Source: a virus
Taxonomy: Duplodnaviria > Heunggongvirae > Uroviricota > Caudoviricetes
Strand: one strand, 5' to 3'
Length of the DNA stretch: 55,842 nucleotides
Virus record (IMG/VR): IMGVR_UViG_2923350032_000003
Made by a program: the position numbers and the translations under genes
The notes under the pieces: generated by a model
Seen by the model: only the letters and a program-made list of their open reading frames with translations
The model's database searches: none
What the model was told of the DNA's origin: nothing
In this document: positions 46,930 through 49,180 of the stretch, in pieces
Layout: each line of letters opens with the position of its first letter
How positions within the stretch are numbered: the stretch's first letter is position 1

Positions 46930-47355
46930 TCAATGCACAGCCACAATATTTCCTGCAGGGCCACCACGATTCATCTGGTTGAAACCAGCGATCGCCACTG
47001 CGACAAAATCATCAGCGTCTCTCACCAGTCGTTCCCGCGTCTCCACTAGTTCCCGAAAATAGGCTGAGCTATGGCTGCGCATTCGGGCCACCAGCAGAGG
47101 TGGCATTGCTTTTTCGATAGCTGGTAACAACGCCTGAATTTTTTCAACTGCATCAGGGGTGTCTTTCTCTACCCAGCGGAAAATTTTCTGGGTATTGCGA
47201 GCCAGGGCTTCCGGATGGCTGTCGTCATACAGTTCTGGGAACGTCATACCCAGTTCAAAATAAGCCCTGGTTATTTCAGCTGCCGGAACTTTTTCACCGT
47301 CCGGATGCGCCCAGGCATTCATCGCCATGCGGATGTGTTCATGCTTGATTTTCAT
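46930..47355 (-). CDS. ydaT: YdaT-family protein (cII-like position)
   Basis: 141 aa, starts MKIKHEHI as I recall K-12 YdaT; downstream of Cro-like gene. Confidence 0.55.
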   Translation of the reverse strand: MKIKHEHIRMAMNAWAHPDGEKVPAAEITRAYFELGMTFPELYDDSHPEALARNTQKIFRWVEKDTPDAVEKIQALLPAIEKAMPPLLVARMRSHSSAYFRELVETRERLVRDADDFVAVAIAGFNQMNRGGPAGNIVAVH

Positions 47356-47620
47356 GAATCAAGCTCCTAGAAAGTGGTTGTGTTAACATTTTGGTATCTT
47401 CCAGCTCGGGCCAAATATTCATCCAATCAAAAGGCCTTAGTTGCTGACGTGTAACTTCACCATTACTGGCTCGCTCAATAAGGACACATAACGATGCCCC
47501 TAACACTTGACCTTTACTCAATGCCTTTCTTAGATAACCGATGCTGGTACCACACTCGCATGCAAACATACGCTGTTCATCTGACGAAAGAGAATTGAGA
47601 AATATTCTTAATTCTTCCAT
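47339..47620 (-). CDS. Cro-like HTH protein (YdaS-like position)
   Basis: 93 aa, divergent from repressor gene. Confidence 0.45.
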   Translation of the reverse strand: MEELRIFLNSLSSDEQRMFACECGTSIGYLRKALSKGQVLGASLCVLIERASNGEVTRQQLRPFDWMNIWPELEDTKMLTQPLSRSLIHENQA

Positions 47621-47650
47621 AGCTACTCCTTAGTAAACACAGCAAAGAAA

Positions 47651-47724
47651 ACCCATAGGTAAACAAAAGTCAATACCCACAGGTTGTTTACCTTGCAGTA
47701 ATCGCATCTATTATTTACCTATGG
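47651..47724. promoter_or_regulatory. Operator-like repeats (oR side) between the cro-like gene and racR
   Basis: acccataggtaaac, tacccacaggttgtttacc and tttacctatgg; the last overlaps the racR start codon. Confidence 0.45.
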
Positions 47725-48140
47725 ACAAATATGAATTTAGACGACAGCAACTCATCAAAATTCGTGATGAGAAATGCGATGGTAAAGCGGTTAACGTGGC
47801 CAGAAAGATCGGGCGCGAGCCTTCTTATGTATCAAGAATGTTGTACCCAGAGGGGAAAAAGGGAAAAAAACGGATCGCTGATGATATGGTGGAGATTATC
47901 GAAGAGTCCTTTGGGTTACCCCGGGGATGGATGGATGGTATCGTTTCATCATCAACGAACACAGCCTCCAGTTATGAAACAAGGGTTCTAACGCCACGAC
48001 AACGTATTTTTTTAGATCTCTTAGACGAACTGCCAGAAAGTGAAGCGGATAACTTATTAAAAACTCTTGAAGAGAAAAAACAGTATTACAATATGATCTA
48101 CGAAGAAATCCGTAAAAAGAAAGCACAAAACGCATCATAG
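47721..48140 (+). CDS. racR: Prophage repressor (RacR-like, HTH)
   Basis: 139 aa with HTH (KAVNVARKIGREPSYVSRML); divergent from the cro-like gene and flanked by operator repeats. Confidence 0.5.
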   Translation: MDKYEFRRQQLIKIRDEKCDGKAVNVARKIGREPSYVSRMLYPEGKKGKKRIADDMVEIIEESFGLPRGWMDGIVSSSTNTASSYETRVLTPRQRIFLDLLDELPESEADNLLKTLEEKKQYYNMIYEEIRKKKAQNAS

Positions 48141-48181
48141 CTCACCAAACAACTAGTCACCAGTTAAGACACCGCAAAAAG

Positions 48182-48220
48182 TTACCCATGGGTATTTACT
48201 TTTTAAATACCTATGGGTAT
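48182..48220. promoter_or_regulatory. Operator-like palindromes (oL side) downstream of racR, upstream of ydaG
   Basis: ttacccatgggtattt and aaatacctatgggtat; same TACC-ATGGGTA core as the oR-side repeats. Confidence 0.45.
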
Positions 48221-48394
48221 CCTTCTTTTCATACCAACCCACCCCGCCCCACAGAATGCAGGGCAATACTTCGAGTTACCAGGCAGTGGTCAGGGGTTAA
48301 GTAGCCAGCCCGAGGCGTAAGAACATGACGGCGGGATTCAAATTTTGCAGTGCAGCAGTTAGTTCCGCCACCCGGCGTTAAGGGGAGAGATAAG

Positions 48395-48529
48395 ATGGTG
48401 CATTACGAAGTAGTTCAGTATTTGATGGATTGTTGCGGTATCACTTACAACCAGGCTGTGCAGGCTTTACGCAGCAACGACTGGGATCTCTGGCAGGCAG
48501 AAGTCGCTATACGTAGCAACAAGATGTGA
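48395..48529 (+). CDS. ydaG: YdaG (44 aa)
   Basis: Hand-translated MVHYEVVQYLMDCCGITYNQAVQALRSNDWDLWQAEVAIRSNKM; below ORF-track cutoff. Confidence 0.65.
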   Translation: MVHYEVVQYLMDCCGITYNQAVQALRSNDWDLWQAEVAIRSNKM

Positions 48530-48539
48530 GATTCGCAAA

Positions 48540-48695
48540 ATGCAAAAAATCGACCTCGGCAACAACGAATCCCTGGTGTGCGGCGTGTTCCCCAACCAGG
48601 ATGGAACGTTCACTGCCATGACGTATACCAAAAGCAAAACATTTAAAACCGAAACTGGTGCGCGCCGATGGTTGGAGAAGCACACAGTAAGCTAA
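48540..48695 (+). CDS. ydaF: YdaF (51 aa)
   Basis: Hand-translated MQKIDLGNNESLVCGVFPNQDGTFTAMTYTKSKTFKTETGARRWLEKHTVS; below ORF-track cutoff. Confidence 0.65.
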   Translation: MQKIDLGNNESLVCGVFPNQDGTFTAMTYTKSKTFKTETGARRWLEKHTVS

Positions 48696-49180
48696 CGATT
48701 AAAACGTCTACTCCTGCTGTTCCAGAATAACTTCATAAAATGGGAGTATTTTTCGGTGACGAGATAATAAGAACAGTTTGCGCTATCACTCTGATGTTGA
48801 ATGATGCCCTTCCGTTCTAATTTTTTCATAACCGGGTTACGGCAAGGAGAAGTGATAATAAGATTTCCTGTTTTAAGGAAATCTTTAAATACAGCGATTT
48901 CTTTCTCAGATAAACGAAGCAATACTCGTTGCTCTGGTAGTAATGAATAATGCTTTTGAATATGTGCTCGCAATCTTGAGAAGGAAATGGCGACCACGAA
49001 AGAAAAGGCAAAAACGATAATCTGAAAGAGCCAAGGTATTTCAGTATAAGCATTGAATGCGACAGTAAACTCTTTCGGTATCAGCCAGAGAGTGAGACCA
49101 AAAATGATAATCGTATACATAAGTCTTTCGAGTGGCTCGTTAGCAAAAAGTTTCAACAATGGAGTAAATACATCCAACAT
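48692..49180 (-). CDS. sieB: Superinfection exclusion protein B
   Basis: 162 aa from MLDVFTPLLKLFANE...; two TM helices. Confidence 0.8.
   Translation of the reverse strand: MLDVFTPLLKLFANEPLERLMYTIIIFGLTLWLIPKEFTVAFNAYTEIPWLFQIIVFAFSFVVAISFSRLRAHIQKHYSLLPEQRVLLRLSEKEIAVFKDFLKTGNLIITSPCRNPVMKKLERKGIIQHQSDSANCSYYLVTEKYSHFMKLFWNSRSRRFNR

Follow-up and report, generated by a model that had tools for sequence, protein, structure and literature searches.

In phage lambda, the divergent cI repressor and cro genes lie around a three-site operator, and a second cluster of sites is found at the early-left promoter beyond the repressor gene. The sites cover -35 and -10 hexamers, with one of them near -42 of the maintenance promoter. 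The same logic of right and left operators (OR/OL) has been revealed by footprinting in two Escherichia coli prophages, Rac of strain K-12 and CP-933P of O157:H7 (PMC9638921, PMC8630535), and the repressor mRNAs of lambda cI, RacR and PaaR2 (the CP-933P repressor) are leaderless (PMC8630535, PMC9638921). The three operators of RacR, O1-O3, have the form (T/A)TAGGC-n3-GCCTA(T/A), given as TTAGGC-n3-GCCTAA (PMC9638921). This report concerns positions 47,651 to 48,220 of a 55,842-nucleotide stretch of viral DNA (Caudoviricetes; IMG/VR record IMGVR_UViG_2923350032_000003), referred to as a whole as the window, in which five palindromes of the type TACC-N4-GGTA flank the gene for a 139-residue repressor. 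These palindromes very probably serve as operators in the immunity switch of a Rac-like lambdoid prophage that has been truncated.

The locus has much in common with Rac of K-12, where the corresponding proteins are RacR, YdaS and YdaT: the prophage backbone and gene order are alike, as are the three intergenic operators, the short repressor lacking a peptidase domain, the YdaT-box on the ydaT start codon and the OL-like pair just before the same conserved junction (PMC9638921, PMC5700373, PMC11879457). However, the two repressors have no detectable similarity, and the Cro-like proteins resemble each other in a C-terminal stretch only. A first-pass annotation of the DNA had called the gene racR-like, which is apt for its position. 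By sequence the identity with RacR is rejected: BLASTP gave a best E-value of 1.7, and no RacR operator was found from 45.4 kb to the end of the window with up to two mismatches allowed, although such operators are present in the RacR-type allele L032. On these sequence comparisons, the cassette in the window is an immunity type different from RacR.

The second prophage, CP-933P, with its PaaR2, YdaS and YdaT proteins, likewise has OR-type operators, there mapped by footprinting, and an analogue of PL/OL beyond the repressor operon (PMC8630535). It differs in having 18-bp operator repeats with the consensus GTTTAGTAA, and a toxin-antitoxin pair that follows the repressor gene there but not in the window.

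Palindromic sites around the repressor gene

The motif, as set by comparative data, is 12 bp long and reads TACC-N4-GGTA, with at most one mismatch allowed in its eight fixed bases. Nineteen such sites occur in the whole window, five of them within the 570 bp and 14 elsewhere. The probability of finding at least five in the 570 bp by chance is 4.6e-7 (Poisson), and clusters of five appeared in 0 of 200 shuffled sequences, which bears out the first-pass claim that two clusters of palindromes flank the repressor gene. The only perfect sites in the 55.8 kb begin at 48183 and 48208. When up to two mismatches are allowed, TACCCATGGGTA occurs three times in the 55.8 kb, always inside 47651-48220. 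The sites, none of which is assigned to a strand, are:

47650..47661: site A (OR1-like), AACCCATAGGTA; centre at -16.5 of the predicted pR-like promoter; T>A at 47650
47674..47685: site B (OR2-like), TACCCACAGGTT; centre at -40.5 of the predicted pR-like and -41.5 of the predicted pRM-like promoter
47689..47700: site C (OR3-like), TACCTTGCAGTA; covers the -35 of the predicted pRM-like promoter, centre at -26.5
47716..47727: doubtful fourth site, TACCTATGGACA; over the start codon, two of eight fixed bases mismatched
48183..48194: site L1 (OL-like), perfect palindrome TACCCATGGGTA; centre at -41.5 of the predicted pL-like promoter
48208..48219: site L2 (OL-like), TACCTATGGGTA; centre at -16.5 of the predicted pL-like promoter

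Sites A, B and C lie in the 100-bp spacer between the divergent Cro-like and repressor genes, at -71, -47 and -32 from the repressor ATG, each with one mismatch in the eight fixed bases. The L1/L2 pair lies 43 bp past the repressor stop codon. All five strings listed in the first-pass annotation were recovered: acccataggtaaac (47651-64), tacccacaggttgtttacc (47674-92), tttacctatgg (47714-24, the ATG being at 47721), ttacccatgggtattt (48182-97) and aaatacctatgggtat (48205-20). The proposal that one of them forms an operator over the start codon is doubtful. Besides its two wrong bases, TACCTATGGACA is not kept in relatives outside E. coli, and it includes the conserved coding bases ATGGA. The genuine third site is C, of which just the initial bases, 'gtttacc', had been caught.

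Conservation beside homologous DNA-binding domains

A scan of one genome per species yielded 23 loci encoding the N-terminal domain of the repressor, to which the phages mEp043 and CharmingMan were added; domain identity in this set is 39-82%. Yersinia, Arsenophonus, Edwardsiella, Brenneria, Klebsiella, Leclercia, Aeromonas, Paraburkholderia, Herbaspirillum, Alcaligenes and Stenotrophomonas are among the genera represented. Nearly all 23 loci, and also mEp043 and CharmingMan, have TACC-N4-GGTA sites with offsets of about -72, -47 and -32 relative to the start codon. Their density in these loci is 39.7 per kb at -80 to -20, compared with 0.53 per kb in the other 86 kb.

The flanks of the 19 loci with a divergent Cro-like gene were tabulated. 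Site A has the consensus TTACC-yryr-GGTAA, and a perfect TACC-N4-GGTA is present at -71 to -75 in 17 of these 19. Site B, kept at -47 to -50, always has a degenerate right half, GGTT or GGTC. The bases TCAA ahead of it do not vary and correspond, on the opposite strand, to the TTGA of a -35 hexamer. Site C follows 3 bp past B in 18 of the 19, the exception being L020. Fourteen loci (13 relatives and the window) also have two sites spaced 25-26 bp apart past the repressor gene; in mEp043 this pair is located between cI and N, upstream of the N gene. Phages of Mannheimia and Xanthomonas, with 45-50% domain identity, also retain TACC sites.

The motif changes when the DNA-binding domain does. Phages vB_EcoS-666R9 and Tritos, which have the tail of the window's repressor and the same backbone but another helix-turn-helix (HTH) and another Cro, have no TACC-N4-GGTA at either position; instead, AGTACA-type repeats stand on either side of the repressor gene. 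In the RacR-type and LexA-type alleles, too, both places are taken by a motif of their own. Four immunity alleles of one backbone each have a separate motif, which recurs ahead of the repressor gene and again directly before the conserved junction.

A more distant relative is Pseudomonas phage LESphi3 (L038), whose domain is 35% identical and whose recognition helix has diverged. Its TGTACC-N5-GGTACA palindromes lie 34-85 bp upstream of the cI start (locus ~1413-1464), retaining the half-site core with one more spacer base and one more flanking base.

It might be supposed that the sites are bound solely by the Cro-like YdaS-family protein, with the 139-residue protein acting elsewhere or not on DNA. 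A Cro-like gene accompanies the sites, divergent from the repressor gene, in 20 of the 25 loci, and it changes along with the motif in 666R9 and Tritos. In five Klebsiella loci, however, the Cro-like gene is absent and the sites are retained, which mildly favours the repressor as the binder; these loci are closely related and probably represent one event. Moreover, the N-terminal domain of the repressor is a predicted HTH whose putative recognition helix hardly varies, the same domain in mEp043 belongs to the annotated cI, and in lambda, CP-933P and Rac it is the repressor that binds the intergenic operators (PMC8630535, PMC9638921). Binding by the Cro-like protein alone is therefore considered highly unlikely.

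The Klebsiella loci (L007, L009, L011-L013) have further features of their own. The domain is fused to an S24 peptidase domain in homologues of 242 residues, the upstream sites lie at about -73 and -33, and past the downstream TACC-N4-GGTA pair comes a T-rich stretch resembling that of the window.

Predicted promoters and a proposed immunity switch

The sites overlap promoter-like hexamers, from which three promoters are predicted:

47646..47673, minus strand: pR-like promoter; -35 TTGACT (47673-47668), 16-bp spacer, -10 TTTTCT (47651-47646)
47687..47714, plus strand: pRM-like promoter, found by consensus scan; TTTACC (47687-92), 16 bp, TATTAT (47709-14)
48195..48223, plus strand: pL-like promoter; -35 TTTACT (48195-200), 17 bp, -10 TATCCT (48218-23), start ~48230

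For the pR-like promoter, a start is predicted at ~47639, upstream of an AAGGAG ribosome-binding site. Its -35 hexamer (the complement of 47668-73) is invariant across loci, and its -10 opens with the TA of the outer half-site of A, reading TAAACT or TAAATT in relatives and TATTCT in other E. coli alleles. The predicted start of the pRM-like promoter, 47721, is the A of the repressor ATG, which predicts a leaderless mRNA; no Shine-Dalgarno sequence precedes the ATG, and enterobacterial relatives have a -10-like hexamer ending 7 nt before it. At the pL-like promoter, the layout of site, -35, site and a -10 beginning with the TA of GGTA is found in all 14 loci having the downstream pair, and in a further three immunity alleles on the Rac backbone. 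Its predicted start, about 48230, is the exact onset of similarity to all other Rac-type prophages, including K-12 Rac. The pR-like and pL-like promoters are alike in geometry, with site centres at about -16.5 and -40.5 or -41.5.

Taken together, the sites exist, cluster beyond chance, co-occur with the domain at fixed positions across distant bacteria and overlap promoter-like hexamers. The following model is proposed for the switch. The 139-residue repressor is probably dimeric on DNA, binding via the predicted XRE-type HTH that it has in common with mEp043 cI. The dimer would recognise two TACC/GGTA half-sites, the pyrimidine-purine-rich centre probably being read indirectly. From A and B, which cover the -10 and -35 of the pR-like promoter, it would shut off the operon for the Cro-like protein, the YdaT/CII-like protein and replication. 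Site B, centred at -41.5 of the pRM-like promoter, may in addition stimulate that maintenance promoter; lambda CI activates PRM from a site centred at the corresponding position. Occupation of C, on the pRM-like -35, would permit self-repression at high repressor levels. L1 and L2, on the -35 and -10 of the pL-like promoter, would allow the repressor to block ydaG, ydaF, kilR, racC, recE and recT, and the co-inherited Cro-like protein most likely competes for the same sites. Binding itself, the order of occupancy, activation from B, the transcription starts and any OR-OL looping via the helical tail are all points that we infer.

The first-pass annotation had likened the arrangement to the oR/oL logic of lambda, in which a repressor controls divergent early operons. 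The likeness is supported by the conserved offsets in about 25 loci, the switch of motif with the HTH, the promoter overlap and the published sister prophages, and it probably holds. Divergence applies to the left operon; the repressor gene and the pL-like operon share one direction of transcription. The locus also departs from lambda in several respects. Its sites are 12-bp TACC-N4-GGTA palindromes compared with 17-bp operators in lambda, there are two OL sites, and the distance from OR to OL is ~530 bp rather than 2.4 kb. An S24 autocleavage domain is absent from the repressor, and the place of CII is taken by a protein of the YdaT type.

Several observations weigh against a lambda-type switch. 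The co-occurrence of domain and sites alone cannot tell whether the repressor or the Cro-like protein is the binder. The promoters are no more than matches to the consensus, and the consensus scan misses the pR-like one because the -10 of this allele, TTTTCT, has no A at position 2. Site A in the window is mutated in a half-site. Centre to centre, B and C are 15 bp apart, whereas the spacing in lambda is 23-24 bp, so that the analogy to OR2/OR3 may break down in detail. Finally, YdaS of Rac K-12 has been reported not to repress racR (PMC9638921), and the lambda-like role of Cro may therefore not transfer.

The architecture of the switch has been described before; the novelty lies in its specificity and in the combination of domains, and no new regulatory principle is added. 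An operator sequence and a promoter layout can now be assigned to a cassette that about 730-820 of the 5426 complete E. coli genomes carry. The DNA-binding domain concerned is widespread in gamma- and betaproteobacterial prophages, and neither a Pfam family nor a described target was found for it. Searches of the literature for the motif strings and for mEp043 operators returned no paper describing either. Such cryptic prophages are predicted to be cross-immune with phages like mEp043, which is a functional lambdoid phage.

Between the predicted pL start and ydaG lies a conserved untranslated leader of ~170 nt (48230-48397), which is present in ~3776 of 5426 E. coli genomes and many phages, with a 76% match in an Actinobacillus phage. 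The leader belongs to no Rfam family, and the fold of 173 nt (48228-48400) is no better than that of shuffled sequences (z -0.2). An Rfam scan of 47300-48700 gave just a sub-threshold microRNA model on the hairpin formed by L1 and L2, which is meaningless here.

Variation among E. coli alleles

Position 47650 in site A, an A in the window, is a T in six other E. coli alleles, one of which differs from the window by that base alone. Only six of 734 genomes match the window's version at ≥99% identity. The change turns the predicted pR -10 from TATTCT into TTTTCT, with loss of the -11 A, and also alters an invariant base of the half-site, so that pR is probably weakened in the window strain. This rare T>A substitution may be a promoter-down, domesticating mutation.

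Operator variation was assessed in an allele set consisting of window positions 47650-47700 together with L029-L031 and L034-L036. Among these seven alleles, variable columns number nine of 36 in the operators and two of 64 elsewhere in the intergenic region (Fisher p = 0.0015), a difference that is a lead only, as the alleles were chosen by identity. Most of the variable columns fall within the central four bases of the sites. Some E. coli alleles have a site C with a perfect GGTA half. In allele L029, site B carries three adjacent changes (CACA to CTTG).

A reading of the repeats as chance palindromes, or as functionless relics of a decayed prophage, is barely credible. In its favour are the truncation of the prophage, where host genes adjoin the left side of the DUF977 gene, the mutation of site A and of the pR-like -10 in the window strain, and the apparent frameshifts in some E. 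coli repressor alleles. However, the clustering statistics given above speak against chance, and the fixed positions are conserved over several orders of gamma- and betaproteobacteria. In addition, the repressor open reading frame (ORF) is intact and belongs to a 90%-identity cluster of 543 sequences, and the six other E. coli alleles show no variation in the half-sites, save for an A/G polymorphism in the right half of C.

The repressor

The repressor gene and its product are as follows:

47721..48140, plus strand: immunity repressor gene, 139 residues; mEp043-type HTH (residues 1-75), disordered linker and helical hairpin tail

The protein matches PHROG 5736 ('transcriptional regulator') with an E-value of 4e-70. 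A Pfam scan of its 139 residues found no family, neither an HTH nor an S24 peptidase domain. Its N-terminus (residues 1-75) is homologous to that of mEp043 cI, with 65% identity over 86 residues (E-value 2e-38), and the N-terminal motif of the mEp043-type cI DNA-binding domain (PHROG 5736 / 27486), REPSYVSRMLYPEGK, is present. Residues 32-42 (REPSYVSRMLY) are nearly invariant among homologues, in parallel with the invariant half-sites. An identical protein is annotated in three other fetched E. coli genomes.

Most of the 317 homologues in the database are 220-242 residues long, with the N-terminal domain fused to an S24/LexA peptidase domain (PF00717). The protein of the window ends instead in a helical tail of ~50 residues, common to the 139-residue repressors of 666R9 and Tritos, whose own N-terminal HTH is unrelated. 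As the repressor lacks the S24 domain, induction cannot take place by RecA-stimulated self-cleavage. The comparison with mEp043 is the most direct one: this phage shares the N-terminal domain, a Cro of 73% identity, sites at -72, -47 and -32 and a pair of sites before the early-left genes, but its cI has 228 residues and an S24 peptidase domain, and is presumably SOS-cleavable. Together the two provide a clean case of repressor domain shuffling, in which one DNA-binding domain is joined to either an SOS-cleavable or a non-cleavable tail.

An AlphaFold2 model of the repressor (predicted local distance difference test score, pLDDT, 87.5) has helices at residues 3-18, 23-30, 34-40 and 54-63 (pLDDT >90), a disordered linker at 77-87 and a helical hairpin at 92-138. 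According to Foldseek, the model resembles XRE-type phage repressors and the controller (C) proteins of restriction-modification systems, with E-values of 1e-3 to 0.4 and probabilities of 0.95-1.0. The top match is Rep of Salmonella phage SPC32H (PDB 5D4Z, 5D50), which superposes on the modelled HTH in 5D50 with a root-mean-square deviation (rmsd) of 1.3 Å over 72 columns at 26% identity. The C-terminal parts do not superpose, the full-length rmsd being high, and the Foldseek E-value is only ~1e-3. SPC32H Rep and Gifsy-type repressors are not known to have an autocleavage domain. Nothing usable on the operator of SPC32H Rep was found in the literature. An antirepressor gene did not turn up in the window, although no search aimed at one was made.

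The only hits of the protein in a PDB sequence search, weak ones to the Z-alpha winged-helix domains of ADAR1 (E-value ~0.08), were set aside, as AlphaFold2 and Foldseek indicate an XRE-type HTH. Several E. coli homologues in the database (P0012, P0015, P0018, P0110) start in an alternative frame (MNLDDSNSSKFV...) but from about residue 50 onwards are again in the frame of the repressor. The corresponding alternative-frame ORF in the window is at 47731-47991, in the +1 frame. The sequences of these homologues suggest frameshifted alleles in which the DNA-binding domain is destroyed.

The downstream pair and possible transcription termination

Sites L1 and L2 together form a hairpin:

48183..48229, plus strand: terminator-like hairpin of L1 and L2; 16-bp stem, 5-nt loop, then the tail TCCTTCTTTT

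The pair could thus be primarily, or additionally, an intrinsic terminator of the repressor transcript made from the pRM-like promoter, stopping it before the pL-like operon. A scan scores 48183-48219, which has TCCTTCTTTT as its tail and lies 43 nt past the repressor stop codon, as terminator-like, and the RNA fold of the hairpin has -24.1 kcal/mol (z -3.4). Furthermore, in each of the RacR-type, LexA-type and 666R9 alleles a separate hairpin lies between the stop codon and OL, but none does in the window allele. Nevertheless, any two copies of a palindrome fold into a hairpin automatically, the stem has just 5 G-C pairs, and the L1/L2 motif is identical to that of the upstream sites, which cannot be terminators. 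Most relatives have a -10-like TAnnnT after the pair and no T-tract, with a loop of 13-14 nt; it is the promoter hexamers that are conserved instead. As a rival to the operators, the terminator is thus unlikely, and as the sole function of the pair it is rejected on comparative grounds as very unlikely. As a function added to L1/L2 in this particular allele, termination has roughly one chance in three.

A fuller account of the locus would combine an undescribed but widespread immunity specificity, in which TACC-N4-GGTA is paired with a Pfam-less HTH moved from an SOS-cleavable cI onto a non-cleavable tail, with an OL pair doubling as terminator, fast-tuned operator centres and a domesticating mutation at 47650. 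That all of these hold jointly is possible but rather doubtful.

Prophage setting

From ~45.3 kb rightwards, the window consists of early-region DNA from a Rac-like lambdoid E. coli prophage that has been truncated, with 100% identity to strain 13KWH46. The minus strand of this region carries the DUF977 gene, the replication organiser and the genes for the YdaT/CII-like (46930-47355) and Cro-like YdaS-family (47339-47620) proteins. The plus-strand repressor gene (47721-48140) is followed by ydaG, ydaF, sieB, kilR, ydaE, racC, recE, recT, ralR and xisR. The features at the left of the switch are:

47339..47620, minus strand: Cro-like gene, YdaS family, 93 residues; PF15943 below the curated cutoff; PHROG 35; first gene of the pR-like operon
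46930..47355, minus strand: YdaT/CII-like regulator gene; PF06254; PHROG 163 'CII-like'
47345..47362, no strand: YdaT-box TTGATTTTCATGAATCAA; spans the ydaT-like start codon, at the left edge of the immunity cassette

Genomes of K-12 type align with the window only left of ~47362 (in ydaT) and right of ~48230, and the intervening stretch (~47363-48229) is therefore the allele-specific immunity cassette. It is carried by 734 to 821 of the 5426 complete E. coli genomes.

The YdaT-box is the sole perfect match in the window and agrees with the published YdaT site (PMC9986795, PMC11879457). YdaT of CP-933P recognises TTGATT-N6-AATCAA (PMC9986795), a sequence unchanged at 47345-62. The box is kept in four immunity alleles, with no more than one change, located at the outer end of the box. 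YdaT is ruled out as the binder of the TACC-N4-GGTA palindromes, as its box is a different sequence at a different place.

Host genes adjoin the DUF977 gene on its left, and the prophage is therefore cryptic. Left of ~45300, beyond the DUF977 gene, these are a BCCT transporter gene, a DUF2254 gene and a LysR gene; with host genes at the left prophage end, the late, lysis and structural genes are missing on that side.

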